A stretch of DNA of 64,000 nt from a virus (IMGVR_UViG_3300034374_009547); one strand, 5' to 3'; shown: positions 34,689 to 62,673, numbered from the stretch's first letter. Translations and numbers: made by a program. The notes: generated from the letters alone by a model not told the origin.

Positions 34689-34905
34689 AGAATTTGTTTC
34701 TGATCTATGGAACTTGTTTAAAGAATATTTGGATAAAAAGCATATTGAATTAGCAGCAGAAAGATATGTAGATACTCTTATTGATTACGGAGTTTCGGAT
34801 ATTCAGTTGCAAGAAATGTTAGGCGGTGATAAAACACTTGATGCTGCAATTCAATATTACTTAGAGTTAGACGACGATAACGATGACGACGATTGGGATG
34901 AATAA
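34681..34905 (+). CDS. Small acidic hypothetical protein
   Basis: Coupled between uvsX and uvsY. Confidence 0.65.
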   Translation: MNEEFVSDLWNLFKEYLDKKHIELAAERYVDTLIDYGVSDIQLQEMLGGDKTLDAAIQYYLELDDDNDDDDWDE

Positions 34906-45500: not shown

Positions 45501-46950
45501 ACTTATTATCGAGGATGAAGTAAACATCAAACTAGAAGGATTAGATGTAGATGTACGGAGAAAGTTATCAAATGCTCTCAAGTTCGATGTGCCATACGCA
45601 CGATATATGCCGCAGTATAAACTTGGACGTTGGGACGGCAAAGTTGCTTTTTTTGGTATTGGGGGTACAGGCTATGTTAATCATCTTGACGTCATTGTGG
45701 ATGTACTTGAAAAAAACAGAGTAAGCATTGTAGACATTGAAGACAATCGTCATCCTATTCAACTTGACTTTCCACAAGTAACTGAACGCTATTGGGCAGA
45801 TCAAGGTGTATGTTGGCCTAAAGGACATCCAGCCGAAGGCGAAGAAATCATTCTGCGTGACTATCAAGTAGAAGCAATCAATAACTTTGCAAACAATCCA
45901 CAGAGTCTACAACAGATTGCTACAGGTGCAGGCAAGACTATTACTACTGCTACACTATCACATATGAGTGAAAAGTATGGACGCAGTTTGGTTATTGTCC
46001 CCAATAAGTCGCTAGTTGAGCAAACTGAAGAAGACTATATTAACTGCGGCTTAGATGTAGGTGTATACTTTGGTGATAGAAAGATGTTAAACAAAACACA
46101 TACTATTTGTACATGGCAAAGTTTAAACATACTTGACAAACGACACAAAGATGGCGAAGCAGTATTATCACTAGCAGAGTTTTTAGAAGGTGTTAGCACG
46201 GTAATTGTAGACGAGGTACACCAAGCAAAAGCAGAAGTATTAAAAAACTTACTAACACGCAACTTGCGTAATGCTCCAATACGTTGGGGATTAACTGGCA
46301 CCATACCTAAAGAGAAGTTTGAATTTGAATCAATACATGCAAGTTTAGGTCCAGTTATTGGAGAAATTACAGCAAAAGAATTACAAGACAAAGGTGTACT
46401 ATCGCAATGTCATGTTAATATTGTACAACTTATTGATACGGTAGCACATAATAATTATCAAGAAGAATTAAAATACTTAACAACAAATAAAGCAAGAATT
46501 GAATATATAGGCAAATTATTAAACACGGTAAAACAATCAGGCAATACTCTAATACTTGTTGATAGGATTTCAGCAGGCGAGATCCTACAAGAACTTATTC
46601 CAGGATCTACTTTTGTTAAAGGTGATGTTAAACTAAAGGATAGAAAAGATGCATATGACGAAATTAACACGGCAGATAATCAAGTGGTTATTGCCACTTA
46701 TGGTGTTGCTGCTGTTGGTATTAATATCCCTCGCATCTTTAATTTGGTTCTTATTGAACCCGGAAAATCTTTTGTTAGAGTTATTCAAAGTATAGGCAGA
46801 GGCGTAAGAAAGGCAAAGGACAAAGACTTCGTACAAATATGGGATCTTACAAGCACTTGTAAGTTTGCGAAGCGGCACCTTACTCAACGTAAAAAGTTTT
46901 ACAAAGAGGCGCAGTATCCATTTACAATAGAAAAAGTAGATTGGAATTAA
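45487..46950 (+). CDS. uvsW: UvsW-like SF2 DNA helicase
   Basis: LRDYQ, IATGAGKT, IVDEVH, GLTGT, ATYGVAAVGINIP, QSIGRGVR; likely GTG start at 45487 after aaagga. Confidence 0.92.
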   Translation: MTTCKLIIEDEVNIKLEGLDVDVRRKLSNALKFDVPYARYMPQYKLGRWDGKVAFFGIGGTGYVNHLDVIVDVLEKNRVSIVDIEDNRHPIQLDFPQVTERYWADQGVCWPKGHPAEGEEIILRDYQVEAINNFANNPQSLQQIATGAGKTITTATLSHMSEKYGRSLVIVPNKSLVEQTEEDYINCGLDVGVYFGDRKMLNKTHTICTWQSLNILDKRHKDGEAVLSLAEFLEGVSTVIVDEVHQAKAEVLKNLLTRNLRNAPIRWGLTGTIPKEKFEFESIHASLGPVIGEITAKELQDKGVLSQCHVNIVQLIDTVAHNNYQEELKYLTTNKARIEYIGKLLNTVKQSGNTLILVDRISAGEILQELIPGSTFVKGDVKLKDRKDAYDEINTADNQVVIATYGVAAVGINIPRIFNLVLIEPGKSFVRVIQSIGRGVRKAKDKDFVQIWDLTSTCKFAKRHLTQRKKFYKEAQYPFTIEKVDWN

Positions 46951-47811: not shown

Positions 47812-48080
47812 GAGCACCAGATCTGATACCCGGCCAGCCACTAATATATGAACGTGCTGATGGCGTAGTTTACGCTAGGTATCGAGATCCTCCATACAAT
47901 GAGCTATATGACAGATGGATAATCGGCGGAGATGCAGATGCTGTAAGTAGAGCAACAGGTAACCTATTTAGTTATGCAGATTGGCAAGAAATGATGGAAC
48001 TAGCAAAAGAATATCCAACATTAAAAAAACAAATGCAGAAACTAGTAACAACATATTATATGGTAAAGGAAAATAAATGA
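47808..48080 (+). CDS. Hypothetical protein
   Basis: ATGA-coupled ORF. Confidence 0.6.
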   Translation: MRAPDLIPGQPLIYERADGVVYARYRDPPYNELYDRWIIGGDADAVSRATGNLFSYADWQEMMELAKEYPTLKKQMQKLVTTYYMVKENK

Positions 48081-49153
48081 ACAATTACATTTTTACTAGC
48101 GAAAGTGTTAGTGATGGTCACCCAGATAAGGTTGCAGACCAAATCTCAGATGCACTAGTTGATGCTGGGTTGAAAGCAGGAGACGAGACAACTCGTGTTG
48201 CTGTTGAAACACTTGTAACTACCAATCATGTAACATTGGCGGGCGAAGTAAAAAACTTTAATGTGAGCAAAGAAGAAGTCAAAGAAATTGTGCGCAATAA
48301 AGTTAAAGAGATTGGTTATGAGCAGAGAGGTTTTCATTGGGACAAATTAAATATTTACAATGAGATCCACAGCCAAAGTGCTGACATTGCACTAGGAACT
48401 GATGACTTCGGTGCAGGCGACCAAGGCATTATGTTTGGCTATGCTTGTAATGATAATGAAGCATATCTGCCTGCACCTATTTACTACGCTCACGAAATAC
48501 TAAAAAAACTTAAAAACTTTTCTCCTTGCTTGCGTCCAGATGCAAAATCTCAAGTTAGTGTCGAATACGAAGGTGGCAAAGTTAAGCGCATTGATCAAGT
48601 TGTGATAAGTACACAGCACGAACTAGATAAAAACACACAAGCAAAAAATTGTGCAAGACATGTGGCAAAAGAAGTACTAGGAGACTTAGTTGATAAAGAT
48701 ACTATATGGCATCTTAATCCTACTGGCAACTTTGTTATTGGTGGGCCTGATGGTGACGCTGGTGTTACTGGACGTAAGATTATCGTTGATACTTATGGCG
48801 GTTTTGCTCCTCACGGCGGCGGTGCTTTTAGTGGCAAAGATCCCACCAAAGTAGATAGAAGTGCAGCCTATATGGCTCGTTGGTTAGCAAAGAATGTTGT
48901 AGCAGATGATATGGCAGACTGGTGTCAAATTCAGTTATCGTATGCTATCGGTGTAAAAGAACCTACTAGTATCTATGTTGATTCAAATGGACACAATCGT
49001 AGTATACAACGTTTTATTCGTGAAAACATTGATCTAACACCAAAAGGCATTATTGATAGATTTGACTTGTTTAACTTTCACCAGTATAGTAGTAATTGTA
49101 CATACGGACACTTTGGCAACAAAGATGTACCTTGGGAAAGGATTGGTTGGTAA
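48077..49153 (+). CDS. metK: S-adenosylmethionine synthetase
   Basis: FTSESVSDGHPDK, GAGDQG, GRKIIVDTYGG, GGGAFSGKDPTKVDRS. Confidence 0.98.
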   Translation: MNNYIFTSESVSDGHPDKVADQISDALVDAGLKAGDETTRVAVETLVTTNHVTLAGEVKNFNVSKEEVKEIVRNKVKEIGYEQRGFHWDKLNIYNEIHSQSADIALGTDDFGAGDQGIMFGYACNDNEAYLPAPIYYAHEILKKLKNFSPCLRPDAKSQVSVEYEGGKVKRIDQVVISTQHELDKNTQAKNCARHVAKEVLGDLVDKDTIWHLNPTGNFVIGGPDGDAGVTGRKIIVDTYGGFAPHGGGAFSGKDPTKVDRSAAYMARWLAKNVVADDMADWCQIQLSYAIGVKEPTSIYVDSNGHNRSIQRFIRENIDLTPKGIIDRFDLFNFHQYSSNCTYGHFGNKDVPWERIGW

Positions 49154-49938
49154 TGCGTATTATTGCAGGACCGTGTCAACACGAAACACTAGAACAAAGT
49201 TTAGAGATTGCATCGGAGTGCAAACGTGTATGTGACTTGTTTGACATTGAATATATTTTTAAAGCAAGTTTTGACAAAGCAAATAGAACAAGCATAGCAG
49301 GCAAACGTGGAGTAGGAATGCCTGCAACTATGCAAGACTTTATTGATATTAAAGAAAAAATAAATGTTAAAACATTAACAGACGTACATGATGTTATGCA
49401 GATAAAAGCAATATGTAATCAATTCAATTATGCAATCGACGTGTTACAGATTCCTGCATTTTTGTGTAGACAAACAGATTTAATTCAAGCAGCATGTAAA
49501 ACAAATAAAATTGTAAATATCAAAAAAGGGCAATTCTTGGCACCTTGGGATGTTAAAGGTATACTAAGTAAAACTGAAGGTGCTAGAGAAGTTTGGATAA
49601 CCGAAAGGGGTACTAGTTTTGGGTATAATACTTTGGTCACTGATTTTACTGGCATCCAGTATATGCGTGACAATTTTTCTGTTCCTGTGGTATTTGACGT
49701 CACACACTCAGTCCAGAAGCCAGGAGGCCAAGGTGACAGCAGTGGTGGGAATAGGGATTATGTTCCAGCTCTTGCTCGTGCTGCTGCTGGCATGGGCGTT
49801 GATAACTTTTTCTTAGAAGTACATGTTGATCCAGATAACGCTCCAAGTGATGGACCTAATATGTTACGCTTAGAAGACTTTGTCGAAACCGTACGACAAT
49901 TATATCATATCAATAAAACCGTAAAAGGATTCGAATGA
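49153..49938 (+). CDS. kdsA: Kdo-8-phosphate synthase
   Basis: IIAGPC, KASFDKANRTS, QIPAFLCRQTDL, KKGQFLAP, ERGTSFGY, FDVTHSVQ, EVHVDP..APSDG; start coupled (TAATG). Confidence 0.96.
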   Translation: MRIIAGPCQHETLEQSLEIASECKRVCDLFDIEYIFKASFDKANRTSIAGKRGVGMPATMQDFIDIKEKINVKTLTDVHDVMQIKAICNQFNYAIDVLQIPAFLCRQTDLIQAACKTNKIVNIKKGQFLAPWDVKGILSKTEGAREVWITERGTSFGYNTLVTDFTGIQYMRDNFSVPVVFDVTHSVQKPGGQGDSSGGNRDYVPALARAAAGMGVDNFFLEVHVDPDNAPSDGPNMLRLEDFVETVRQLYHINKTVKGFE

Positions 49939-50603
49939 CAACAGCAATACTAATACCTGCACGATATGCCAGTAGTAGATTTCCTGGTAAAATGATGGCC
50001 AAATTAAATGGCGTGCCACTAGTAGAACACGTTTATAACAAGTGTGCTGCTACAGGACTAGATACATATGTACTTACAGATCATCAAGACATTTACAACT
50101 ATATGGGTGCTAATAGATGTCTTATGACAGGTGAAGCAGAAAATGGCACAGAACGTTGTATGCAGGTTATTGACAAAGTACTACAATATGATAGATATAT
50201 TAACGTACAAGGTGACATGCCTGATATCACTGAAGATATCATACGTGCAGTAGAAGGCGAACTACAACGTAGTGATATTGCAACCGCATATACGCCCATG
50301 GATTTTAACTTGCGAAATGATCCAAATAGTGTTAAAATGATACATAGTAGAGGTAGAGCACATTGGTTTTTACGTGCAAGTCTTACATACGGTGATCACC
50401 ACTTAGGTGTGTATGGCTACAACAGAGAAGCAAAGATTGTTTATACCACAAGCATTAAATACACAGAGGAAGATATCGAACAACTAGAACAACTGCGTTG
50501 GATACAAAACGGACATAAAATTGGTGTAGTAGAAGTTGAGTTTGACGGTATTGAAATTAACACGCCAGAGGATTTAGAAAAGTGGGAAAAAAATAATGGC
50601 TAG
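49935..50603 (+). CDS. kdsB: CMP-Kdo synthetase (3-deoxy-manno-octulosonate cytidylyltransferase)
   Basis: IPARYASSRFPGK, NGTER, NVQGD, HLGVYGY, EQLEQLRWI, INTPED. Confidence 0.95.
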   Translation: MTTAILIPARYASSRFPGKMMAKLNGVPLVEHVYNKCAATGLDTYVLTDHQDIYNYMGANRCLMTGEAENGTERCMQVIDKVLQYDRYINVQGDMPDITEDIIRAVEGELQRSDIATAYTPMDFNLRNDPNSVKMIHSRGRAHWFLRASLTYGDHHLGVYGYNREAKIVYTTSIKYTEEDIEQLEQLRWIQNGHKIGVVEVEFDGIEINTPEDLEKWEKNNG

Positions 50604-50751: not shown

Positions 50752-51211
50752 AGAACTAGACTTGTTTAAAGAACTTATCCCTGCTATCGATATGGGCATC
50801 AAAGAGTTGTATGACGCTGCTGGAGATGATGGCAAGAAGGATATAAAACTTGACTTATGGAACTTGAACCGTTATATTAGTAGTGTAAAAGGCAACTATG
50901 AAAAAACTGCACTAGCAGTGTTCAAGGTTAATGAATACTACAACAAGAACTGGAATGTGCTAGGCGGCACTAATCATGTAAAACTGCAATGGCAATTATT
51001 ATGTGTTGCTGGCAAAACAGGTAAAACACAATTCCATCCGTGGATTGGACTAAAAAAGAAAAAAGACGATAGCAGCAAAGCAGTAAATTTGTTATCACAA
51101 ATATATCCAGATATGAAAATGGACGAGGTAGAAACACTTGCTAGAATATCTACAAAAAAAGAAATTAAAGAACTCGCCCGAGAACACGGTTACGAAAAAG
51201 TTGACATCTAA
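50741..51211 (+). CDS. Possible clamp-loader small subunit (gp62-like)
   Basis: NRYISS, LQWQLLC, QFHPWIGLKKKK, helical C-terminus resembling gp62; start reassigned to ATG 50741. Confidence 0.4.
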   Translation: MPNKELDLFKELIPAIDMGIKELYDAAGDDGKKDIKLDLWNLNRYISSVKGNYEKTALAVFKVNEYYNKNWNVLGGTNHVKLQWQLLCVAGKTGKTQFHPWIGLKKKKDDSSKAVNLLSQIYPDMKMDEVETLARISTKKEIKELAREHGYEKVDI

Positions 51212-51881
51212 ATACACTTGTGAATATTGTTCAAAAAGTTATATGAAAGAAAGTACATTGTTAGCGCATATGTGCGAGCCAAAGAGACGTTGGCTACAAA
51301 AAGATGAAAAACGTGTACAGGTTGGCTTTTATGCATTTCAAAGATTTTACAAGCTGAGTGCAGGACACAAGAAAGATAAGACATATGAAGAATTTGTTAA
51401 GTCATCCTTCTACAATGCGTTTGTTAAGTTTGGTAGTTTTGTTAACAATGTACGGCCTCTCTATCCTGACAAGTATATTGATTACGTAGTTACTAGCAAC
51501 GTAAAACTAGATCACTGGTGTAGAGAAGAAATGTATGAAAAATACGCCATTGAACTTATTCGCAAAGAAGGTGTAGAAACTGCATTAGAGCGTTCAATAA
51601 ATACAATGACCGAATGGGCTAAAGAAAAGAATAGTATGTATAATCATTATTTCTTGTATGCTTCACCAAATAGAATTACATGGGATATTAAAGATGGAAA
51701 AATTTCGCCTTGGTTAGTATTGAATTGTACAAGTGGAAAAACTGCATTAAGTAATTTTAATGACGAACAATTAAGCATGTTGAATGCTGTTTTAGATCCA
51801 AGTCATTGGGCATTACGTTTTAAAAGACAACCGAAAGATGTTGAATTAGTTAAAACAATAGTCGAGAAAGCAAATATATGA
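51201..51881 (+). CDS. Hypothetical protein with N-terminal C2H2-like zinc finger (start uncertain)
   Basis: CEYCSKSYMKESTLLAHMC. Confidence 0.6.
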   Translation: MTSKYTCEYCSKSYMKESTLLAHMCEPKRRWLQKDEKRVQVGFYAFQRFYKLSAGHKKDKTYEEFVKSSFYNAFVKFGSFVNNVRPLYPDKYIDYVVTSNVKLDHWCREEMYEKYAIELIRKEGVETALERSINTMTEWAKEKNSMYNHYFLYASPNRITWDIKDGKISPWLVLNCTSGKTALSNFNDEQLSMLNAVLDPSHWALRFKRQPKDVELVKTIVEKANI

Positions 51882-52096
51882 ATTTTAGAAAATTGCAAGA
51901 TGATGTACAAGTTTACGAACTTGATGAACCTGTTGAACTGATTGTTAAAACCAAAGCACCAGCAAAGTGGTTATTGATTGACAGAGAGACAGGAGAGCAG
52001 TATATTGGTGCTACGCCTAAAGAAGGCGAAAAGCATTGGAATCGTGTACCTGATAGTGAAATGTGGAGATATGCAATGGAGCGTGAAGATGCCTGA
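51878..52096 (+). CDS. Small hypothetical protein
   Basis: ATGA-coupled; KTKAPAKWLLIDRETGEQY. Confidence 0.6.
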   Translation: MNFRKLQDDVQVYELDEPVELIVKTKAPAKWLLIDRETGEQYIGATPKEGEKHWNRVPDSEMWRYAMEREDA

Positions 52097-52664
52097 TATT
52101 GACATCGACTTTGCTGATCGCAGTGTTATATTAGACAAGATACAACACCGTGTAGCAAAATTAGATACAGGTAAAAAACACAATACTGGTGTGTATGTAA
52201 CCGAGTGTCCGCACAACCCTGTTGACAACTTGGCTACTATTGATTACAAGACAGCAGAAGATAGAGGCTACTTCAAACTAGACTTTCTTAATGTTAGCAT
52301 TTACAATGATGTTAAGGACGAAGAACATTTACAACGTTTAATGAACAAGGAACCAGAATGGAGTCTTTTACAACACGACGATTTCACCGATCTTATCTTT
52401 CATATCTCCGGACACGGAGAAATATTACGCAAAACAAAGCCGACAAACGTAGAACAATTAGCAGCAGTACTAGCGATGATACGGCCGGCCAAACGCCATC
52501 TTGTTAACGAAACTTGGCCAACGATATTAGAAAAAGTGTGGGTCGCTCCCACTGACGGTGGTTACTATTTTAAGAAAGCACATGCTATTGCATATGCTGT
52601 TAGTGTTGTAGTTCATATGAATTTAATTTGTGAACAACTTAACGAACAGCAGACCGTCTCATAA
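52089..52664 (+). CDS. Miniature C-family (DnaE-like) polymerase core fragment, 191 aa
   Basis: MPDIDIDF, KKHNTGVYV, GYFKLDFL, LAMIRP, GYYFKKAHAIAYA collinear with DnaE motifs; ggag SD before ATG 52089. Confidence 0.85.
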   Translation: MPDIDIDFADRSVILDKIQHRVAKLDTGKKHNTGVYVTECPHNPVDNLATIDYKTAEDRGYFKLDFLNVSIYNDVKDEEHLQRLMNKEPEWSLLQHDDFTDLIFHISGHGEILRKTKPTNVEQLAAVLAMIRPAKRHLVNETWPTILEKVWVAPTDGGYYFKKAHAIAYAVSVVVHMNLICEQLNEQQTVS

Positions 52665-53013
52665 CTTGCACACTTTTACGTTTTACTCTTTTTATTGTCA
52701 AGTTATTTAAATTAACACAATGACCCATTACTACTTTAACATCTTTAGAATTCATAGTCATCATACTATAACTTAATTCATGAATCTCACTACGTAGAAA
52801 AATGTTTATAGGAATCATTCTATTAGATTCCCACCACCAAATTTCACCTAGTTCTAATAATAAACATTTGTGTTCTTCGGTACGTAATTTGGTGTAAACA
52901 TACATAGTTGTTACAATACTATCTTGATTTACAATAATACCCACGTATTCGTTGCCGCCATAGGCGACTACGCTCAAATAAGGAAATTTTGTTTCAATAT
53001 CTTTTAATAACAT
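52639..53013 (-). CDS. Hypothetical protein
   Basis: ORF convergent with mini-DnaE; start reassigned to ATG 53013. Confidence 0.6.
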   Translation of the reverse strand: MLLKDIETKFPYLSVVAYGGNEYVGIIVNQDSIVTTMYVYTKLRTEEHKCLLLELGEIWWWESNRMIPINIFLRSEIHELSYSMMTMNSKDVKVVMGHCVNLNNLTIKRVKRKSVQVMRRSAVR

Positions 53014-53049
53014 ATTACCATAAATACTTATATAAAAAGGTTCCAGCCA

Positions 53050-54030
53050 ATGCAAAAAATGTATAGATATTTAGCAAATAACAAAGTTGTTGTTCTAGCC
53101 AATTTGGCAGGTTACGTGACGGAGTATAGACCAGTGTATCAAAAAAATTTACAAGTATATAGAGGCATTGATAATGTAGTACATTTTGAAGTACGTAATC
53201 ATGATCAAAAGCCTATAAATTTAAGTGGGTATACACCAAAGATTATGGTGTTTACTGAAAACAATGTTCTTGTATTAGAAAAAGAAGGCAACGTTTTAGA
53301 CGATGCAATTACAAGAACAACTAGTGCAGTAGAAACTGCACCCGATAAAACATTAACATTTTCAAGTACAAGTAATATTACAGCAGGTATGTTTGTAAGT
53401 GGAACCTACATCAAAAATAACACACTGGTAACTGATGTAACTGACAACACCGTGACTATGAATAAATCTGCTACTGACGCTGTTCCTACTGGAACTGAAA
53501 TTACTTTCCAAACAAAAAGTAAAAAAGGCGTGTTTACAATTACATTAACAGAAAATGAATTGTTAGATCTAAAACAACAATATTTAAAATATGCAATTTA
53601 TCTAGTTAACAGCACTGGAGAAAAAGTTTTAACATACAGCAGTGACCATTTTGAAGCAAAAGGAACTATGTACTTAGATGGAATGACATTTCCTGGACCT
53701 TTAGCAAGTTATAATTTACAATCGTTTACAGCAGACAACGATGTTTGGTATACTGAATCAATTGATGCTCAACCAGGAATAAACGGAAATAGTGCATTAC
53801 ACACAGCAGCATTTTATACAGATACTTTTTCTGGTGATATAGTTGTTGAAGGTACATTAGAAAATTTAGTTACATTGGATACAAACTGGGCAGAAGTTGC
53901 TACTCTTACACTTACAGGATCTGAATCAGAGCCAACTCCTTTAAATTTTAACGGCGTATTTACTTTTTTAAGATTTAAAACTGCAACTGATCCTACGGAC
54001 AAAATATCAAAAATATTAATTAGAAATTAA
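53050..54030 (+). CDS. Hypothetical, probable virion structural protein
   Basis: Late core CATAAATA at 53019; beta-rich, T-rich. Confidence 0.55.
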   Translation: MQKMYRYLANNKVVVLANLAGYVTEYRPVYQKNLQVYRGIDNVVHFEVRNHDQKPINLSGYTPKIMVFTENNVLVLEKEGNVLDDAITRTTSAVETAPDKTLTFSSTSNITAGMFVSGTYIKNNTLVTDVTDNTVTMNKSATDAVPTGTEITFQTKSKKGVFTITLTENELLDLKQQYLKYAIYLVNSTGEKVLTYSSDHFEAKGTMYLDGMTFPGPLASYNLQSFTADNDVWYTESIDAQPGINGNSALHTAAFYTDTFSGDIVVEGTLENLVTLDTNWAEVATLTLTGSESEPTPLNFNGVFTFLRFKTATDPTDKISKILIRN

Positions 54031-54042
54031 GGTAAATACGTT

Positions 54043-54402
54043 ATGGCATTTAGTGAAACAATATTATCAAATCAAACTCATCCAGGTGATAGTACAACAG
54101 AAACCGTAACAGGTGACAAGTACAAAGGCGACGGCTATTATGGACGTAGCGATGGATTTCACACGGTGCAATATTCAGTAAATGGCTTTATAGGATCAAT
54201 TGACATGGAAGCAACACTTGCAGTAGAACCTACTGCTGATGATTGGTTTACTTTAAACACAAATCTAACAAGTGCAGATGATTCTAGTAGTTATGCAACA
54301 GGAAGTTTTATATACAACTTCACAGGTAACTATGTTTGGGTAAGAGCTAAAGTTACAAACTGGACTGATGGCGACATAACACGTATACAATTAAACCATT
54401 GA
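54043..54402 (+). CDS. Hypothetical, probable virion structural protein
   Basis: GTAAATA at 54032; similar to the C-terminal domain of the upstream gene (F.G.I..E.TL...W, F.G...W/F.R.K). Confidence 0.55.
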   Translation: MAFSETILSNQTHPGDSTTETVTGDKYKGDGYYGRSDGFHTVQYSVNGFIGSIDMEATLAVEPTADDWFTLNTNLTSADDSSSYATGSFIYNFTGNYVWVRAKVTNWTDGDITRIQLNH

Positions 54403-54427
54403 CAATACTATAATACGATGCTAATAT
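54399..54427 (+). promoter_or_regulatory. Sigma70 promoter for primase (leaderless)
   Basis: TTGACA-N17-TAATAT with TGn; ATG 6 nt downstream. Confidence 0.8.
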
Positions 54428-54433
54428 ATATGT

Positions 54434-55426
54434 ATGAGCATCGTATCTGACACCTTGACACTATATCTGCCTGCAAAGCGCAAAACTACTCCTAGTGGGT
54501 GGACCAGTTTCAATGCGCCTTGTTGTGTTCACAATAATGAAAATGCAGATACAAGAGGCAGAGGCGGTATCATATATGAAGGCGAAGTTATTTCATATCA
54601 TTGTTTTAACTGCGGCTTCAAAGCAAGTTGGCAACCAGGACGTAATCTTAGTTACAAACTCAAAAAACTTTTGGAATGGTTAAACGTTCCTGATCAAGAT
54701 ATTACAAAACTTGCACTGGATGTAATGCGTGAAAACGAAGGCGTCGAAGTTCAAAAATATTCTGTTGAACTGCCAGAGTTTGCAACTACACAATTACCAG
54801 AAGGTGCAGAGCCATTGTCCAAACACATGTGGGCAGAGGCTGGTCATTTAGACGAAAGAATCACACGTTGCTTTCAATATATGTTAGAACGTGATTTAAG
54901 TATCGAGGACATAGATTATCACTGGTCGCCAACACTTGCTTATCGTGACAGACTTATTATACCTTTCTACTACGAGGGTCGTATAGTTGGATATACAGCC
55001 CGTACAATTAAGGATAACAAGGTTAAGTATCTAACTGACTCGCAACCTGGGTATGTGTTTAACTTAGACGCACAAGGTCCTAATAAAGTGTTTTGTATAG
55101 TATGCGAAGGTCCTATTGATGCACTGCACGTAGAAGGTTGCGCACTTACAGGAAGCGATATTAATGACGCACAAGCACTATTACTTAACAGGCTTAACAA
55201 AGATATATATGTTGTTCCAGACAGAGATAAAGCCGGAAGCAAGTTGGTGGAGCAGGCTATCGATAGAGGTTGGCATGTTAGTTTACCAGACTGGGATACA
55301 GAAGTAAATGACATCGGTGATGCAGTAGCAAAATATGGAAGGCTATATACATTGTATAGTATTGCAAGTGCTGCTGAAAGCAGCCCATTAAAAATAAGAT
55401 TAAAGGCGAAAAAATGGTTTGGTTAA
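54434..55426 (+). CDS. DNA primase (T4 gp61-like)
   Basis: Zn motif CCVH...YHCFNCGF; RLIIPF, GYTAR; TOPRIM VCEGPIDA and PDRDKAG. Confidence 0.93.
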   Translation: MSIVSDTLTLYLPAKRKTTPSGWTSFNAPCCVHNNENADTRGRGGIIYEGEVISYHCFNCGFKASWQPGRNLSYKLKKLLEWLNVPDQDITKLALDVMRENEGVEVQKYSVELPEFATTQLPEGAEPLSKHMWAEAGHLDERITRCFQYMLERDLSIEDIDYHWSPTLAYRDRLIIPFYYEGRIVGYTARTIKDNKVKYLTDSQPGYVFNLDAQGPNKVFCIVCEGPIDALHVEGCALTGSDINDAQALLLNRLNKDIYVVPDRDKAGSKLVEQAIDRGWHVSLPDWDTEVNDIGDAVAKYGRLYTLYSIASAAESSPLKIRLKAKKWFG

Positions 55427-55536
55427 AAAGACTATGGAGTTGGATTTTATATCCGTATAGATATATCAAAGAAGAACGTGAATTCAAAAAGCGTATAAAA
55501 AAACTTAGAGAACAGGACCCGTTTATCTACAAATGA
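55414..55536 (+). CDS. 40-aa microprotein (not in ORF track)
   Basis: MVWLKRLWSWILYPYRYIKEEREFKKRIKKLREQDPFIYK*; overlaps the primase stop and the next ATG (ATGA). Confidence 0.7.
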   Translation: MVWLKRLWSWILYPYRYIKEEREFKKRIKKLREQDPFIYK

Positions 55537-55706
55537 AGAAATGGTTAATGGGTACAAAGTTGTTTTGGCGACTATACTTTTGGTGGGGTATTCGTCAAGC
55601 ACGTAAACGTAGAATAGCACGAGAAGCAGAACTAGCAAAGCGTCCACTAATGACAAATGATGAGTATTGGGAGAAAGTTCACAATGATAGAACTAATAAT
55701 CTATAA
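55533..55706 (+). CDS. 57-aa Trp/Arg-rich microprotein (not in ORF track)
   Basis: MKKWLMGTKLFWRLYFWWGIRQARKRR...NNL*; coupled to neighbours. Confidence 0.65.
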   Translation: MKKWLMGTKLFWRLYFWWGIRQARKRRIAREAELAKRPLMTNDEYWEKVHNDRTNNL

Positions 55707-55785
55707 CATTCTATTTTGGGTACCGTATATTTGGTTATGCAGTTTACCAGAAAAACTAATGCAGGCGGCCATTGACGCAGCATGA
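55684..55785 (+). CDS. 33-aa single-TM microprotein (not in ORF track)
   Basis: MIELIIYNILFWVPYIWLCSLPEKLMQAAIDAA*; ATGA overlap with 55782. Confidence 0.6.
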   Translation: MIELIIYNILFWVPYIWLCSLPEKLMQAAIDAA

Positions 55786-56909
55786 TATCAATAATTCAAC
55801 ACCCAAGTAATTTAGAAGGTACTAATGAATTTTGGCTGTCTAGTTATTTAGGTATGCAAAAGATTAAGTACGAATTAATATCATTTGAAGATATAAAAAA
55901 TAATCTTGTTTTATATGAAATAAGTTGTAATGGAAATATTAAAAAGTATCATTCTAAAGTTTTGCCAACTATTCCAAATAATGTTATTCAACAACTTGTT
56001 GAAAACAAAAACTTTTATTTGATACTAGGTGCTGCAACCGAGGGTTACAACACTGACATAAATCTATTAGAGAAATTTTGTAATGACAAAAATATATCTC
56101 ATCACAAAGTGATTTTACTTACTGGTAATTGTAGACACATTGATTACTACAAAACTTCGATACCTGTGATATATATTCCTTGGTTTGAAAAAAAATCTAA
56201 GAACGAAGCAATACAAACTTTAAATGTTCCGTTTGATTTAAAAAGGCAGTATACATGGCTTAGTTTAAATCGTATTCCTCGTCCTCATCGTGTTGTGCAT
56301 GTAAGTCATTTACTTAATAACAATCTAGCAGATAAATTCCTATGGAGTTTAGATAATCATCCAAAAGGTTTAAAATTTATTTTTGAGTCTACAAAGAATG
56401 CGTTTAATAATGAATTAACAAAAGACATCGGAGTGTTACGTAAACATCCTTTGCCTAAAGTTTTAGATATACCAGATTTTAATTTATTTACATCAACTAA
56501 CCCTAACCTATATCACTTATACAAACAAGCATATTTTAGTGTTGTAACTGAAACAAGTGTAGCAAATGACACTACTTTTATATCAGAAAAAACATTTAAA
56601 CCAATTATAAATGGTCATCCTTTTATTATTATTGGCAATCCAAAAACACTTGATACTTTGCATAATTGGGGATATAAAACCTATCATGGGTTATTCAATG
56701 AAGCATATGATAAGATAGAAGATAAAAATGCACGTATACAATTTATTAATAATGAAATAGAAAGAATAAGTGCATTATCTTTAGACGAAATACACGAGCT
56801 GTACAACAACGTAAAAGACATAATTGTGTATAATCAACAAAGATTCTTTATGGAAAAAACATTCAAAGAAGATAAAATATTTTTAAGTAGTATAGGATAT
56901 ACAACATGA
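55782..56909 (+). CDS. Putative glycosyltransferase (GT10/exostosin-like C-terminus)
   Basis: LSLNRIPRPHR; FSVVTET...FISEKTFKPIINGHPFIIIG...GYKTY. Confidence 0.55.
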   Translation: MISIIQHPSNLEGTNEFWLSSYLGMQKIKYELISFEDIKNNLVLYEISCNGNIKKYHSKVLPTIPNNVIQQLVENKNFYLILGAATEGYNTDINLLEKFCNDKNISHHKVILLTGNCRHIDYYKTSIPVIYIPWFEKKSKNEAIQTLNVPFDLKRQYTWLSLNRIPRPHRVVHVSHLLNNNLADKFLWSLDNHPKGLKFIFESTKNAFNNELTKDIGVLRKHPLPKVLDIPDFNLFTSTNPNLYHLYKQAYFSVVTETSVANDTTFISEKTFKPIINGHPFIIIGNPKTLDTLHNWGYKTYHGLFNEAYDKIEDKNARIQFINNEIERISALSLDEIHELYNNVKDIIVYNQQRFFMEKTFKEDKIFLSSIGYTT

Positions 56910-58414
56910 TTACGTGGGGTATAAGTGCTAACAGCCACGATGCAGCGTTAGCTGTATTTTATCATAGACCGTGGGCTAATGGTAGTATAGAGCTACTATT
57001 TGCCAGTCATAGCGAACGCTATAGTGGTGTAAAAAACGATGCACATTTAAATGATAAATTAATAAGTGAAGCAAAAAAATATGGAGAGCCAGATGAAATT
57101 ATTTGGTATGAAAGACCCTTTGTCAAAACTCTTAGACAACTTAGAGCAGGGCAAGGATTCAAATACTTGGGTAAAAACAACATTAGTCGGTATCTTCGAT
57201 CTTATGGTATATCTGCTCCTATTCGCTATACTGATCATCACCTTGCCCATGCTGCTGCCGGTTATTATACTTCGCCTTTTACTGACGCCAGCGTTGTTGT
57301 TATCGACAGCATTGGAGAATTTGATACACTCACTATCTGGAATGCGTCAGAAGAAAAAGGCCTTAAGCGTGTATTTTGTCAACGGTATCCCCATTCAATC
57401 GGACTCTGGTACTCGGCGTTTACGCAAAGAATAGGCCTAAAGCCACAGGAGGATGAATACATACTTATGGGTATGGCAGCGTATGGTGACCCCCTACGTT
57501 TTTTTGACGAAATAATGAAAGAATTTATTCACGTTGTTGATCAGGATAACAGCCCACGTATAAAATTTAAACATAACTTACATAGGGGCTGCATGTGGTG
57601 GCGACCAGAACTTAATAGCCCCCAGGATCTTATGGACATAGCGGCTGCTGTACAAGCAATATATGCGTACTTATTGAAAGTGATAAGTAACTGGGCTAGG
57701 TGGAAATCGCCATCGGGTAACCTTGTGTTAATGGGTGGGTGTGCTTTAAATTGTGCAGCTAATAGTACAATCTACAAAGATTGGAATGATGTTTGGATTA
57801 TGCCCAACCCGGGTGATGCAGGCAGTGCTATAGGTGCTCCTCTTGCTCATTGGCGTCAACACATTTCGTGGCCGGGTCCATATTTAGGACATACTATTCA
57901 AGGAGACTATCCAGTTGAAGAAGCATTACAGGAACTACTTACTACTGGTATTGTTGGTGTTGCCAATGGGGCTGCTGAATTCGGCCCCAGAGCACTTGGA
58001 CACCGTTCCCTCCTTGCAGACCCTAGAGGACCCGACATCAAAGACCGAGTCAACAACATCAAAAAGAGACAGCTTTTCAGACCTTTTGCTCCAGCGGTCC
58101 TTGCCGAACATGCCCGAGATTACTTTGACGGACCAACAGGACCCTTTATGCAATACACTTCTACTTGCACAGATCCTGGACTACCTGCAATCGTCCACGG
58201 GGACGGCACCTCTCGGGTACAGGCAGTTTCTGCAGATCAAAGCGTGGGCTTTAGAAAATTGCTAGAACGTTGGTACGAAGAAACAGGTTGTCCTATACTG
58301 CTAAACACTAGCCTAAACATCAAAGGCAAACCTATTGTAAATACCGTTGAAGACGCACAAGAATTTGAAAAACACTACGGAGTTAAAGTATGTACGGCTG
58401 CTGCAAAAACGTAA
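56906..58414 (+). CDS. Carbamoyltransferase (NodU/CmcH family)
   Basis: HDAALA, SERYS..KND, DHHLAHAA, IDSIGE, GGCALNC, GDAGSAIG, EFGPRALGHRS, KRQLFRPFAP, LNTSLN. Confidence 0.95.
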   Translation: MITWGISANSHDAALAVFYHRPWANGSIELLFASHSERYSGVKNDAHLNDKLISEAKKYGEPDEIIWYERPFVKTLRQLRAGQGFKYLGKNNISRYLRSYGISAPIRYTDHHLAHAAAGYYTSPFTDASVVVIDSIGEFDTLTIWNASEEKGLKRVFCQRYPHSIGLWYSAFTQRIGLKPQEDEYILMGMAAYGDPLRFFDEIMKEFIHVVDQDNSPRIKFKHNLHRGCMWWRPELNSPQDLMDIAAAVQAIYAYLLKVISNWARWKSPSGNLVLMGGCALNCAANSTIYKDWNDVWIMPNPGDAGSAIGAPLAHWRQHISWPGPYLGHTIQGDYPVEEALQELLTTGIVGVANGAAEFGPRALGHRSLLADPRGPDIKDRVNNIKKRQLFRPFAPAVLAEHARDYFDGPTGPFMQYTSTCTDPGLPAIVHGDGTSRVQAVSADQSVGFRKLLERWYEETGCPILLNTSLNIKGKPIVNTVEDAQEFEKHYGVKVCTAAAKT

Positions 58415-58444
58415 TACAAGAGCAACATAAAGAAATAATTGAAA

Positions 58445-58472
58445 TTGACAACCACAAGTTTTGTGTTATAAT
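58445..58472 (+). promoter_or_regulatory. Consensus sigma70 promoter for helicase
   Basis: TTGACA-N16-TATAAT with TGn. Confidence 0.85.
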
Positions 58473-58531
58473 TAGATATTGCAAGACATGCGGACAAGTA
58501 AAAGCACAATCTCATATCACGGAAGTAAAGA

Positions 58532-59947
58532 ATGGCAACTAGACAAAATACAGATTATGGATATGATATACAAAAAGTATATTTAGAAATGTTTATGACA
58601 GACGCAGAAAGTTTTGTGCGCTGTCAAGGTGTGTTTGATCCGCAAACATTTGATAGACGCTTACAAGATCCAGCAAAATTTGTAAAGGATTATGTGGAAG
58701 AACACAATGCACTTCCAACATTTGATATGGTTAATGCTGCTACTAACAGCGACTTAAAAGATCCAGGGCAACTGCAAGAGAATCATTATGATTGGTTGTT
58801 GCAGGACTTTGAAACATTTAGCAAACATAAAGCATTAGAAGCAGCTATTCTTAAAAGTGCAGACTTGTTGGAAAAAGGGCAGTATGGTGCGTGTGAGGAC
58901 TTGGTTAAACAGGCTGTACAAATTGGGTTGCAAAAAGACTTGGGCACAGATTACTTTGCAGATCCAAGGGCTAGACTAGAAGGTATTAAAGACAAAAACG
59001 GACAAGTTAGCACAGGCTGGCCAGCACTAGATAAGAAATTGTTTGGTGGATTTAACAGAGGCGAACTAAACATTTTTGCAGGTGGTTCGGGTTCAGGTAA
59101 GAGTTTGTTCTTGGCTAATTTGGGTGTGAACTGGTGCTTGCTAGGTATGAACGTGTTGTATCTAACATTTGAACTTAGTGAAGCATTGGTTAGTATGCGT
59201 GTAGATTCAATGACAACTGATATTGCAAGTCGTGACATTTTTAAAAGCATTGACGATGTTGAAATGAAAGTCAAGATGATTGGCAAGAAAGCAGGTGCAT
59301 TCCAAGTCAAGTATATGCCCACAGGTAAGAACGCAAACGATTTAAGAGCATACATCAAAGAGTATGAAATCAAAACAGGACGCAAACTTGATGTTGTGCT
59401 AGTAGACTATTTGGATTTGATGCATCCAAATGCTGTTAAGATTTCAGCAGAGAACTTGTTTGTTAAGGACAAGTATGTATCAGAAGAACTGCGTAACTTG
59501 GCTATGGAACTTAATACGGTGTTTGTTACAGCATCGCAGTTGAACAGAAGTTCAGTTGAAGAAATTGAATTTGACCATAGTCACATATCTGGTGGTATTT
59601 CAAAGATCAATACAGCAGATAATTTGATTGGTATCTTTACAAGTAGAGCAATGCGTGAGCGTGGACGTTATCAAATACAACTTATGAAAACACGTAGTAG
59701 TAGTGGTGTTGGACAAAAGATTGATTTAGAATTTGATGTAGATAGTTTACGTATACGTGATTTAGGCGAGGATGAAGAATACAAAGAATTTGAGAAACGC
59801 AAGTCAACCGTATTTGATCAAATCAAGCGCAATAATACACCCGCAGTTGAAAAAGAAGATCCCAGCGAAGGCGACACGGTAGGCAAAATTCGTGCAGAAG
59901 CAGACAGCACACAATTAAGAAACTTTTTGAGTAATTTAGGATCTTAA
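58532..59947 (+). CDS. Replicative DnaB-like helicase (T4 gp41-like)
   Basis: STGWPALD, AGGSGSGKS, YLTFELSE, VDYLDL, TASQLNR, QLMKTR. Confidence 0.95.
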   Translation: MATRQNTDYGYDIQKVYLEMFMTDAESFVRCQGVFDPQTFDRRLQDPAKFVKDYVEEHNALPTFDMVNAATNSDLKDPGQLQENHYDWLLQDFETFSKHKALEAAILKSADLLEKGQYGACEDLVKQAVQIGLQKDLGTDYFADPRARLEGIKDKNGQVSTGWPALDKKLFGGFNRGELNIFAGGSGSGKSLFLANLGVNWCLLGMNVLYLTFELSEALVSMRVDSMTTDIASRDIFKSIDDVEMKVKMIGKKAGAFQVKYMPTGKNANDLRAYIKEYEIKTGRKLDVVLVDYLDLMHPNAVKISAENLFVKDKYVSEELRNLAMELNTVFVTASQLNRSSVEEIEFDHSHISGGISKINTADNLIGIFTSRAMRERGRYQIQLMKTRSSSGVGQKIDLEFDVDSLRIRDLGEDEEYKEFEKRKSTVFDQIKRNNTPAVEKEDPSEGDTVGKIRAEADSTQLRNFLSNLGS

Positions 59948-59957
59948 TCAAAAATTA

Positions 59958-60037
59958 TTTTTGCCAACGAATCTTGAGACTAAATAACTTGCGTTTAAAA
60001 AACGCTAGGCAAAATATTTAGACTACAAGAGGCTAAC
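59958..60037 (+). promoter_or_regulatory. Structured leader containing a late promoter and an SD-sequestering inverted repeat
   Basis: tcttgagactaaata(59972-86) pairs with tatttagactacaaga(60015-30); inner gcgttt-aaa-aaacgc hairpin; SD aagagg 60027-32. Confidence 0.55.
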
Positions 60038-61684
60038 ATGAAAACAGATTTAGAAAATATACAAAGGCTTTATGACAGATTTAAAAGGCCAGTACCTGAA
60101 GGTACAGAATATCAAGAGAGACTAGTTGAAGAGTTTGAGTTAATACTAGACCTACGCTTCACAGAATACTTCCTACAAATTTGTGACATTATAGATCTTA
60201 CCACTGATATCAAACACATGACACGTGGATCAGCGGGCAGTAGTCTAGTGTGTTACTTGCTTGGGATTACAGACGTGGATCCCATCAAGTGGAAGATACC
60301 TGTGGCGAGGTTTATGAACCCACTGCGTGATGACCTACCGGATGTTGATATCGATTTTGAACATTGGCGACAAGGTGAAGTTATGAATCGCATATTCAAA
60401 AAGTGGCCCGGCATGACGGCAAGGTTGAGCAACTATGTCACGTACAAACCAAAAAGTGCCAAACGTGAGGCAGCCAAACGATTGGGCGCCACAGGTAGAC
60501 TTCCTAGAAACTTTACATATGAATCAGTAGGTGTAGATCCTACAGAAGCAAAACGCATAGAGCGTAAATTACTAGGCAAAAAAAGAGCAATATCAAAACA
60601 TTGTGGAGGCATCGTTATGTTCACTAGAAAACTACCTAAATCACTTATCTCAGAAGACAACCAAATATTATTAGACAAACACGAAGTTGAGGATCTTGAA
60701 CACCTCAAAGTTGACATACTGGCCAATAGAGGCTTGAGTCAACTACTGGAAATAGACCCGCATACAGCATTAGAAGACTATCCTGAAGAGGATGCAGCAA
60801 CAGCAGCATTGCTTGCTAGAGGCGATGTACTAGGTGTTACACAAGGGGAAAGCCCTGCTATGCGTAGACTATTCCGTGCAATACAACCTACCTGTGTACA
60901 GGATTGTGTGTTTGCTACAGCCCTTGTACGACCTGTTGCTATGAGCGGAAGACAAAAAGCAGCAGTGTTCCAAGACTGGTCGCAAGAAGCAACACAAGAC
61001 AGCATTGTATTTGAAGACGATGCTATAGAAATTATAAGTAGCATTATAGGAGTAGATGCATATGAAGCTGATTCATACCGTAGGGCGTTTGCCAAAAAGA
61101 ATGATGAAAAGATTTTGGAGTTTGTGGAACGCTTGGGAAACAACCCTCAACGAGCACAGGCCATGGCTGCACTACAGGAGTTATCCGGTTTCGGACTATG
61201 CCGCGCTCATGCTGTTAATCTCGGAAGACTCATCTGGGCACTGGCATACCAAAAAGCACACAACCCAGAAGCCTTCTGGAGAGCCAACCTCCGTCACTGC
61301 CAAGGAAGCTATAGAAGCTGGGTGTATCAAACAGAAGCACACAGACGAAACATACTAACTGAACCTGGTTGGTGGCACAGAGGATTTCCACGTGGACTAG
61401 GTGTACAACAGCGTTTCTTAGAACGTGTAAACTTTGCTGGTGTTATTGCCAACGGTAGAACATTCCGTGGCCGCAACGGACGCTATGTTACATTCCTCAC
61501 ACTGGGCACCAACTATGGTGAATACGTAGATGTAACCATACAAAAGCCGTTTCAGTATAGAGACGGCGACATAGTCAGTGGTAGCGGAGTTGTTAGACAC
61601 CAAAACAACTCAGATTACATCAATTGTACAGATGCAAGATTGTTTACTTTTGCGCAATGGCGACAGGAGACATATGACGTCTAA
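60038..61684 (+). CDS. dnaE: PHP-less DNA polymerase III alpha-like protein (548 aa) with C-terminal OB fold
   Basis: RGSAGSSLVCYLLGITDVDP, RFMNPLR..LPDVDIDF, KHCGG, LKVDIL, QGES, ALVRP, GFGLCRAHA, FAGVIANGR..VTFLTL. Confidence 0.9.
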   Translation: MKTDLENIQRLYDRFKRPVPEGTEYQERLVEEFELILDLRFTEYFLQICDIIDLTTDIKHMTRGSAGSSLVCYLLGITDVDPIKWKIPVARFMNPLRDDLPDVDIDFEHWRQGEVMNRIFKKWPGMTARLSNYVTYKPKSAKREAAKRLGATGRLPRNFTYESVGVDPTEAKRIERKLLGKKRAISKHCGGIVMFTRKLPKSLISEDNQILLDKHEVEDLEHLKVDILANRGLSQLLEIDPHTALEDYPEEDAATAALLARGDVLGVTQGESPAMRRLFRAIQPTCVQDCVFATALVRPVAMSGRQKAAVFQDWSQEATQDSIVFEDDAIEIISSIIGVDAYEADSYRRAFAKKNDEKILEFVERLGNNPQRAQAMAALQELSGFGLCRAHAVNLGRLIWALAYQKAHNPEAFWRANLRHCQGSYRSWVYQTEAHRRNILTEPGWWHRGFPRGLGVQQRFLERVNFAGVIANGRTFRGRNGRYVTFLTLGTNYGEYVDVTIQKPFQYRDGDIVSGSGVVRHQNNSDYINCTDARLFTFAQWRQETYDV

Positions 61685-62147
61685 TACCAATTGCTCTGTG
61701 AGGATCAAACAAATCATAACGCACACGGTTTTCTTGATTGCCTCCTAGTATTACCCAGTATTCTCGATCGTTGTGTGTTTGTGTTTTGACATAAAATCCA
61801 ACATGTCCTTGCCAACCTTGATTTCCTCGAGGAAAAACAACTACATCTCCACGCTGTATATCAACACGTTCTACACGAGTTCCCCAATACAGAAAACTAC
61901 GTGCCATCAACGGTGGATAACGTGTTTGATCATTTAAACTGGGAATACCGTCTAGTTCTAGTACAGCATTGGCAAAGGCTGCACACCATTCTGTACGCAC
62001 AGGATCAACGCCTACAAATGCACGTATCTCTGATCTATCTGCACGTTCTTCTAATCCTATATACGGTTGCGCTGTTACAACCGAGTCTTTTGTGTCAATG
62101 GTCCCACAGGCACCCAAGAACACGAATATTGCAATCGAACCCCTCAT
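61644..62147 (-). CDS. NlpC/P60-CHAP superfamily peptidase (TIGR02594-like), predicted lipoprotein
   Basis: MRGSIAIFVFLGAC lipobox; WCAAFAN, ARSFL, GDVVVF.R, GHVGFY, LGGNQ; late core 4 nt upstream. Confidence 0.85.
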   Translation of the reverse strand: MRGSIAIFVFLGACGTIDTKDSVVTAQPYIGLEERADRSEIRAFVGVDPVRTEWCAAFANAVLELDGIPSLNDQTRYPPLMARSFLYWGTRVERVDIQRGDVVVFPRGNQGWQGHVGFYVKTQTHNDREYWVILGGNQENRVRYDLFDPHRAIGIRRHMSPVAIAQK

Positions 62148-62154
62148 GTAATAT

Positions 62155-62673
62155 TTAGTCGTCGTATATCCTGGTAAATGTTTGCCCCACAAGAGGATGT
62201 CGCAACTGCCAAGTTGTGCCCCAATTATCCGTGCCTACAGCAGTGTATTGTATAGTAAAGAAATTGGTATTCAACAACACAGCTTGTAAACCTGCATGAT
62301 CATCAGTGACGCATCTATTGACTAGATCCAAGTGTATGCTGTGTTGATTGGGCAAAGCACACAATTCATCAATGCCTTCCCACCAACTATGATGTGTATC
62401 AGGTGGTTTGAACAGATCGTTAACTGCATGTAATACCTGTGCATCTCCTGGTCTCAAATGTTGTCGCAACAAATCCCATTGCCAAAAATGCCCACACTTG
62501 AAGTCTATGTACACAGGATCTGGTATATCCCATGTGCGTTCCACATGACCTACTTCACTGCAAAGTCTATTGTAACCTTGTTCAGCAGTGTATTGATCTA
62601 TAACTATACAATGATCTGGTGAATAATCCAGTGGCAGCAAACCTGTGGCCATCCAAGCGGGTAATACGTTCAT
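62155..62673 (-). CDS. Hypothetical protein
   Basis: Start reassigned to ATG 62673, 5 nt after TATAAATA on the minus strand. Confidence 0.55.
   Translation of the reverse strand: MNVLPAWMATGLLPLDYSPDHCIVIDQYTAEQGYNRLCSEVGHVERTWDIPDPVYIDFKCGHFWQWDLLRQHLRPGDAQVLHAVNDLFKPPDTHHSWWEGIDELCALPNQHSIHLDLVNRCVTDDHAGLQAVLLNTNFFTIQYTAVGTDNWGTTWQLRHPLVGQTFTRIYDD

Follow-up and report, generated by a model that had tools for sequence, protein, structure and literature searches.

A compact PHP-less family C DNA polymerase with an attached OB fold in an uncultured T4-like marine jumbo phage

Family C DNA polymerases are usually seen as bacterial replicases, with a few host-like, PHP-keeping copies in phages (PMC3201878, PMC11348598). 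Viral members of the family have been described as PHP-bearing and similar to the E. coli enzyme (PMC3201878), and family C is the rarest polymerase class among phages (PMC11348598). A 2021 paper on jumbo phages by Iyer et al. describes a split minimal form of DNA polymerase III (Pol III) only and reports that the phages with this form carry no other Pol III domains (PMC7824862). Here we analyse a polymerase gene in a 64,000-nucleotide (nt) stretch of viral DNA (IMGVR_UViG_3300034374_009547, hereafter the window), which comes from an uncultured T4-like marine jumbo phage. Its product, a protein of 548 amino acids (aa) that we call the compact DnaE, is a family C core made up of a palm, a short thumb and shortened fingers, with an OB fold attached directly to it. 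No published description of a single-chain PHP-less DnaE–OB form or of its helicase fusions was found, in a literature search of incomplete coverage that is no proof of novelty. New here are the structural model, the selection analysis, the occurrence of three polymerase systems on one contig, and a tree that unites the stand-alone phage forms with the fusions, apart from DnaE1 and DnaE2.

A family C core joined to an OB fold

The open reading frame (ORF) of the compact DnaE is intact and starts with ATG, and its translation contains the motifs RGSAGSS (residues 63–69), RFMNPLR (91–97), PDVDIDF (101–107) and KVDIL (224–228), as the original prediction for this locus had stated. Two Pfam models matched the protein: DNA_pol3_alpha (PF07733) at residues 10–229 (E = 2.5e-42; 145.8 bits, with a cut-off of 23.9) and DNA_pol3_finger (PF17657) at residues 243–364 (E = 5e-17; 62.1 bits, with a cut-off of 22). 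The same scan returned no PHP (PF02811), no HHH_6 and nothing else beyond these two models. Residues 19–439 also align to positions 358–844 of PHROG 405, a 1190-position phage DnaE profile.

The domain limits (Table 1) were set after the E. coli DnaE structure, reportedly that of Lamers et al. 2006. In the profile alignment, residues 18–419 correspond to E. coli DnaE 314–788, with two 20-residue deletions, one in the thumb and one in the fingers. Alignment and superposition place residue 1 at E. coli ~284–300, and the structural match stops at E. coli ~817, the distal fingers, the β-binding/HhH domain and the τ-binding tail being absent. The protein has 0 residues before the core and 96 after it, whereas E. 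coli DnaE has 360 after the core. Pfam, profile alignment and structure therefore agree with the earlier claim of an enzyme about half the length of a bacterial DnaE that has neither a PHP nor an HhH/β-binding domain.

The protein was modelled with AlphaFold2 from an alignment of 43 diverse homologues (predicted local distance difference test (pLDDT), 89.6; predicted template modelling score (pTM), 0.88), and the model matched solved structures over 420–500 residues in VIA-align. It aligned with M. tuberculosis DnaE1 (5lew) at Z = 35.7 over 439 residues, model residues 1–445 falling on chain residues 313–842, and with the Thermus aquaticus (Taq) Pol III α ternary complex (3e0d) at Z = 33.6 over 501 residues (model 3–546 on 300–1126), the OB fold included. 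The corresponding Z scores were 29.7 for PolC (3f2c) and 26–27 for E. coli DnaE. Taken alone, residues 460–538 are an OB fold, with matches to PriB and single-stranded DNA-binding protein (SSB) at Z = 8.0–8.7 and a root-mean-square deviation of ~2.2 Å. This fold starts ~10 residues past the last fingers helix, which upholds the prediction that the core is joined to it almost directly; it co-aligns with the OB folds of Taq and M. tuberculosis DnaE and is placed as in the Taq ternary complex.

In the profile alignment, the catalytic residues D102, D104 and D226 correspond to E. coli D401, D403 and D555, and R63/G64/S65, R91, K224, R298, R348 and H391 correspond to R362/G363/S364, R390, K553, R639, R709 and H760. 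All of them are invariant across 43 compact homologues, most of which are only 28–48% identical to the window protein. The Pfam scores, these catalytic and nucleotide-binding residues and the palm–thumb–fingers fold place the protein in family C.

Relatives at ≥75% identity number 254 in IMG/VR and more than 500 in the metagenome collection, and the copies (>250 and >500, respectively) are intact at 541–556 aa. The frame was uninterrupted in 79 of 80 extracted IMG/VR copies, and the length was 542–556 aa in all but one. Because hundreds of intact copies of near-constant length exist, chance occurrence of the 548-aa ORF is excluded. Pairwise dN/dS ratios against the window copy were 0.05–0.11 overall and ~0.1–0.2 for the OB part. 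Intact catalytic residues, intact frames and purifying selection in the sequences indicate that this is a working gene. Recent horizontal transfer was also considered and is unsupported: the gene has a GC content of 0.438 (window, 0.359) and a third-codon-position GC content of 0.353 (~0.30), a small offset that the carbamoyltransferase gene shares and in which relatives are inconsistent.

A PHP-less clade of viral polymerases

A megablast search with window positions 51000–62000 against the phage nucleotide collection gave no match, so that collection holds no cultured relative, and the best tblastn match of the 548-aa protein in it was the uncultured contig LR756508.1, at 36% identity. Relatives sought among 1.8 billion representatives fell into three layers: ~40 clusters of compact proteins of 540–630 aa (35–65% identity); ~18 clusters of ~1000-aa proteins, with an SF2 helicase (ResIII/DEAD/Helicase_C) at the PHP position and the same ~95-residue OB tail after the core; and ordinary PHP-bearing enzymes.

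Trees were computed with FastTree for 130 cores and with IQ-TREE for 58; DnaE3 and PolC were left out, DnaE2 was represented by few sequences, and the root was assumed. In both trees, a single branch (length 1.27; Shimodaira–Hasegawa-like approximate likelihood-ratio test (SH-aLRT) support, 100) parts all PHP-bearing sequences from a purely PHP-less clade. The PHP-bearing side comprises E. coli DnaE1, three plasmid DnaE2 and the DnaE of phages Goby, StarPlatinum and Ss1, and the DnaE2 of Burkholderia, Rhizobium and Tsukamurella, a small sample of that group, form a clade inside it. When the tree is rooted on the 1.27 branch, the window group diverges first and the helicase fusions cluster in a single nested clade (support, 100). 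The layout of the PHP-less clade, a core that is N-terminal or follows a non-PHP module and an OB fold within ~100 residues, was found in the window protein and in 43 compact and 18 helicase-fused cluster representatives.

The top NCBIfam match of the 548-aa protein was the DnaE2 model NF004225, at 179.4 bits against a cut-off of 939, and the DnaE1 model NF004226 gave 156.9 bits against a cut-off of 1002. On the scores and the trees, the protein is a member of neither DnaE1 nor DnaE2. It lacks the PHP, β-clamp-binding/HhH and τ-binding domains of DnaE1 and falls short of the NF004226 cut-off. It likewise falls short of the cut-off for DnaE2/ImuC, does not group with these enzymes in the trees and has no imuA–imuB neighbours: among the ~40 window ORFs scanned, there was no ImuB-like Y-family or ImuA-like gene, and the adjoining genes encode a gp41 helicase upstream and a lysozyme-like protein downstream. 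Nor does it have the features of the split minimal Pol III α, as it is one chain in which a thumb, the proximal part of the fingers and an OB fold are present. The original prediction had proposed a non-proofreading enzyme comparable in role to DnaE2. A second polymerase without a proofreading module, in company with PolB in relatives, is what we find; kinship with DnaE2 is not supported, given the position of the window protein outside DnaE2, across the SH-aLRT 100 branch from both DnaE1 and DnaE2, and the 179 bits against 939.

The fused relatives carry an N-terminal ResIII/DEAD/Helicase_C motor of 370–620 residues. In IMG/VR, the locus of one fusion (P0154) is a partial GVMAG contig, that is, one from a giant-virus metagenome-assembled genome (L092), and no locus was found in the IMG/VR scan for another (P0166). 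The nearest neighbours in the protein atlas are Uroviricota and Nucleocytoviricota clusters. One helicase–DnaE fusion, P0178 (1184 aa), has a Hint/homing-endonuclease intein within its helicase part. About 20 PHP-less cluster representatives (P0143, P0152, P0167, P0144 and others) have N-terminal extensions of 40–145 residues or longer C-terminal regions that gave no Pfam or PHROG match.

From the sequences we propose the PHP-less DnaE–OB clade as a virus-only group of stand-alone phage proteins and SF2-helicase fusions. A wider claim, which in our judgement could equally turn out right or wrong, is that these enzymes make up a fifth major group within family C, specific to viruses (PHP-less palm–thumb–fingers–OB) and missing from published classifications. 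Aquatic jumbo phages would have it, and so would giant viruses of eukaryotes, in the shape of SF2-helicase fusions that arose from the stand-alone enzyme; in all of them it would be a second, helicase-coupled polymerase next to a family B replicase. If so, the window lineage and its sister would run three polymerase systems, with PolB and the split mini-Pol III alongside the compact DnaE–OB. A large and abundant virus-only branch has dropped the PHP, clamp-binding and τ-binding domains and yet is strongly selected, the clade links the replication gene pools of jumbo phages and giant viruses, and the compact DnaE offers a natural minimal Pol III core for structure–function work. It also raises the question of why marine T4-type replisomes need one or two extra family C enzymes.

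Proposed role beside a T4-type replisome

Co-occurrence with other polymerases was tested on contigs of relatives. PolB accompanies the compact DnaE on 3 of the 3 contigs long enough to show one: LR756508.1 (484 kb), G006 (96 kb, estimated to be 52% complete) and G009 (203 kb, from the sister lineage). G009 holds on one contig PolB (an 899-aa frame), the compact DnaE and both halves of the split mini-Pol III, the N-terminal half matching PHROG 11127 (E = 3e-45). In LR756508.1, the Pfam model for PolB matched two open frames of 1022 aa and 625 aa (L082–L084, ~260–267 kb) that lie ~4 kb apart, and the gene may be split or interrupted.

As predicted, the window contains two differently minimised DnaE genes within 8 kb, the second one, of 191 aa, lying 7.4 kb upstream of the compact polymerase gene. 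The rule of Iyer et al., that no other Pol III domains occur beside the split form, fails for the window lineage. LR756508.1 and G006 have the compact DnaE without the split mini-Pol III, and the similarity between the two enzymes is at motif level only; these observations indicate that the compact DnaE is independent of the split form.

A PHP domain was not found in LR756508.1, G009 or the other contigs searched, G006 included, with a search that recovered PHP in 14 of 14 control genomes. A weak PHP match in G001 (E = 0.008, 12.5 bits) coincides with a KdsB-like gene and was treated as chance. No DnaQ-type exonuclease was found in window-lineage contigs or in G009. A clamp-binding tail motif conserved across the PHP-less clade was likewise not found. 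In one subclade (P0124, P0136 and LR756508.1 (L085)), the C-terminal residues of the compact DnaE are QLxxF(W)- or QFFW-like and resemble the tail of the LR756508.1 PolB (...QKFFSM); these tails may be a clamp-binding peptide that the window protein lacks. The window family has an L[WYF]T[FL]xxW motif near the C-terminus that is loosely like the G009 PolB tail (...TLFSFE), a likeness too weak for a clamp-binding claim.

Pfam and PHROG matches confirm that the polymerase gene adjoins that of a gp41 helicase within a T4-like replisome (gp32, gp41, gp61 and UvsXYW). In the window lineage, ~25 long IMG/VR loci show the fixed order mini-DnaE, primase, carbamoyltransferase, gp41 helicase and compact DnaE, the last two being direct neighbours in all of them. 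In three loci of the sister lineage (L212, L269 and L270), the compact DnaE is inverted relative to the helicase–primase–mini-DnaE block and stands tail-to-tail with gp41, still as its immediate neighbour. The association of the compact DnaE with the helicase is real and is confined to the window lineage and its sister. A sigma70 promoter with a 12/12 consensus precedes the helicase gene, and no + strand terminator was found between the helicase and polymerase genes; we infer from these two features that the pair is probably co-transcribed early.

Judging from the sequence evidence, the compact DnaE is very probably an active accessory polymerase. It would not be the bulk replicase, because the T4-type PolB replisome would do that job; it would act instead as an accessory enzyme within the replication and recombination module. 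Its task would most likely be to synthesise short patches or to copy DNA during recombination (by extending D-loops, filling gaps or reading past template damage) on a single strand exposed by a helicase, with the OB fold holding the template, and it would be distributive, having neither an exonuclease of its own nor a clamp-binding domain. We infer this accessory, helicase-coupled activity from the intact active site, an OB fold of the type that binds the single-stranded template in Pol III α, the absence of exonuclease and clamp-binding domains, the constant company of PolB, a proofreading enzyme, the position in the gene block and the helicase-fused relatives. Helicase-coupled synthesis is preferred over an SOS-type mutasome because the gene lies among early replication and recombination genes and because helicase fusions occur in the same clade. 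The best overall explanation, a competent non-proofreading accessory polymerase for helicase-coupled repair or recombination synthesis, has about an even chance of being correct, and its specific part, the helicase-coupled repair or recombination role, must be held slightly more tentatively than that. We know of no lesion-tolerant or recombination polymerase in T4-type phages, and if the compact DnaE were such an enzyme it would fill that gap.

Several observations weigh against this explanation. In the sister lineage (63–65% identity), the genes for the compact DnaE and the helicase converge and are hence not co-transcribed. The neighbours of the compact DnaE in LR756508.1 and G006 are unrelated, helicase adjacency being limited to the window lineage and its sister. 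The fused helicase and the window UvsW-like helicase share their best PHROG (phrog_16), whereas BLASTP between them gives motif-level similarity only (E = 0.2). The evidence for PolB comes from the contigs of relatives, not from the genome of the window itself. Finally, nothing separates repair or recombination synthesis from a role in the replisome such as primer extension. Repair or recombination synthesis ranks first in probability, with primer extension as its main rival; a DnaE2-like mutasome is less likely, and a split replicase or a relic is unlikely.

In the primer-extension alternative, the enzyme would be a lagging-strand polymerase of the replisome that docks on the gp41 helicase–primase primosome, extends RNA primers briefly and hands over to PolB, in parallel with B. 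subtilis DnaE, DnaC and DnaG or with eukaryotic Pol α. T4-type PolB holoenzymes, however, extend primase products directly. The place of the gene in a conserved block that also encodes primase and gp41 helicase, apparently under an early sigma70 promoter, speaks for this role, as do precedents: B. subtilis DnaE joins helicase and primase in a ternary complex and elongates RNA primers (PMC3664799), and Iyer et al. proposed strand-specific cooperation of the other mini-Pol III with PolB (PMC7824862). Against it, the adjacency to gp41 is lost in distant lineages, and the helicases fused to relatives are of the SF2 rather than the DnaB type. We consider primer extension a minority possibility.

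A little less probable again is an enzyme dedicated to translesion synthesis or mutagenesis, as a counterpart of DnaE2/ImuC. The compact DnaE has no proofreading module, its best NCBIfam model is the error-prone NF004225 (179 bits, against 157 for DnaE1), and it stops after the OB fold; DnaE2 is not known to have a τ-binding tail either, and phages of surface water are exposed to UV. The score, however, lies far under the DnaE2 cut-off of 939 bits, the three DnaE2 references cluster with DnaE1, apart from the compact DnaE, and the compact DnaE is without the PHP and β-binding domains that these references keep (~290–360 N-terminal and ~230–290 C-terminal residues outside the core). Moreover, the scanned window ORFs include no ImuB-like Y-family or ImuA-like gene.

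Two further alternatives have very little probability. The compact DnaE could be one subunit of a split main replicase with its PHP/exonuclease subunit encoded elsewhere, an arrangement with a precedent in this phage lineage, where two separate genes encode the halves of another Pol III-like enzyme. The original prediction had named a separate PHP gene and no PolB as the mark of such an arrangement; LR756508.1, G009 and G006 show the reverse, PolB present and PHP absent, and the protein has neither a clamp-binding domain nor a conserved clamp-binding tail. A non-polymerase or decaying relic, for instance a nucleotidyltransferase that acts on a different substrate, or a gene being lost, would suit the unusual truncated architecture, but is at odds with a dN/dS of ~0.1 over hundreds of copies, invariant catalytic and dNTP-binding residues, and conserved fingers and OB fold.

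Neighbouring genes and comparison with known systems

The window is a segment of a T4-like myophage, with structural genes that include those for tail sheath, tail tube and terminase. The coordinates of the polymerase, its parts and its surroundings are collected in Table 1.

Table 1. Polymerase gene, protein domains and neighbouring features, in window coordinates
Feature	Position	Strand	Basis or remark
Compact PHP-less family C polymerase gene (P0001, 548 aa)	60038–61684	+	ORF list and translation; Pfam PF07733 and PF17657; DnaE fold match; dN/dS
Shine–Dalgarno sequence AAGAGG	60027–60032	+	5 nt upstream of the polymerase ATG; read from sequence
Palm part 1, residues 1–133; RGS nucleotide-binding motif R63 G64 S65, R91, catalytic D102 and D104 (PDVDIDF)	60038–60436	+	E. 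coli profile alignment; invariance
Shortened thumb, residues ~134–187	60437–60598	+	E. coli profile alignment; 20 residues missing relative to E. coli 451–472
Palm part 2, residues 188–231; K224 and third catalytic Asp D226 (KVDIL)	60599–60730	+	E. coli K553/D555; invariant
Fingers, proximal part only, residues 232–445; conserved R298-P299, R348, H391, K406	60731–61372	+	PF17657; E. coli R639, R709, H760, K775
C-terminal OB fold, residues 455–537, then short family-specific helix 538–546	61400–61648	+	AlphaFold2 strands 455–536; structural matches; dN/dS
gp41/DnaB-like replicative helicase	58532–59947	+	Pfam DnaB_C, PHROG 19; conserved upstream neighbour
sigma70 promoter, 12/12 consensus (TTGACA, 16-nt spacer, TG, TATAAT)	58445–58472	+	Consensus scan; 60 nt before the gp41-like helicase gene
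Nol/NodU-like carbamoyltransferase	56906–58414
375-aa ORF	55782–56909
gp61-like primase	54434–55426	+	Toprim, PHROG 47, synteny; same conserved block
C-terminal (metal-binding) half of split mini-Pol III, 191 aa	52089–52664	+	PHROG 11778, E = 7e-60; separate polymerase, no part of the 548-aa enzyme
S-adenosylmethionine synthetase, KDO-8-phosphate-synthase-like (DAHP_synth_1) and KdsB-like cytidylyltransferase genes	48077–50603
UvsW-like SF2 helicase	45430–46950
UvsY	34905–35360
UvsX	33594–34688
gp32-like SSB	32555–33544
Lysozyme/baseplate-hub-like gene	61644–62192	−

The compact polymerase gene is the last of its + strand block, and the lysozyme/baseplate-hub-like gene on the opposite strand overlaps its 3′ end by 41 nt. 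The carbamoyltransferase gene between primase and helicase, an odd member of a replication block, is kept there in nearly all relatives. The 375-aa ORF has no Pfam match, a faint PHROG match and no counterpart in the related loci examined, and appears to be an insert, peculiar to the lineage, between the primase and carbamoyltransferase genes. The S-adenosylmethionine synthetase, KDO-8-phosphate-synthase-like and KdsB-like genes follow one another immediately upstream of the mini-DnaE block.

With E. coli DnaE1 and the PHP-bearing DnaE of Streptomyces phages Goby and StarPlatinum and Cronobacter phage Ss1, the compact DnaE has in common the palm–thumb–fingers fold, the catalytic residues and the kind of OB fold. 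It differs from them in being about half as long, without the PHP, distal fingers, HhH/β-binding and τ-binding domains. DnaE2/ImuC (NF004225) is, like the compact DnaE, a family C polymerase without working proofreading and is its best curated model, by a weak margin. In contrast to the compact DnaE, which belongs to another clade, DnaE2/ImuC is bacterial, keeps the N-terminal region at the PHP position and the β-binding region, and has ImuA and ImuB as partners.

The SF2 helicase–DnaE fusions of giant viruses share with the compact DnaE the PHP-less core with an attached OB fold of ~90–100 residues and belong to the same clade, nested among stand-alone phage forms. They differ in carrying the helicase motor in-chain at the N terminus and in their giant-virus-type contigs, whereas the helicase partner of the window enzyme, if any, is a separate gene. 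As an analogy only, eukaryotic DNA polymerase θ joins an SF2 helicase to a non-proofreading repair polymerase beside family B replicases, as in the fused relatives; its polymerase domain is of family A, with no homology, and no evidence links the compact DnaE to end joining.

The split minimal Pol III α of group 2.2 jumbo phages (Iyer, Anantharaman, Krishnan, Burroughs and Aravind 2021, Viruses 13:63, PMC7824862) is, like the compact DnaE, a phage-specific, PHP-less reduced core found in T4-like jumbo phages alongside a family B polymerase. It is encoded, however, by two distant genes of ~175 and 190 aa and lacks an OB fold and nearly all of the thumb, whereas the compact DnaE is one chain with thumb, fingers and OB fold.

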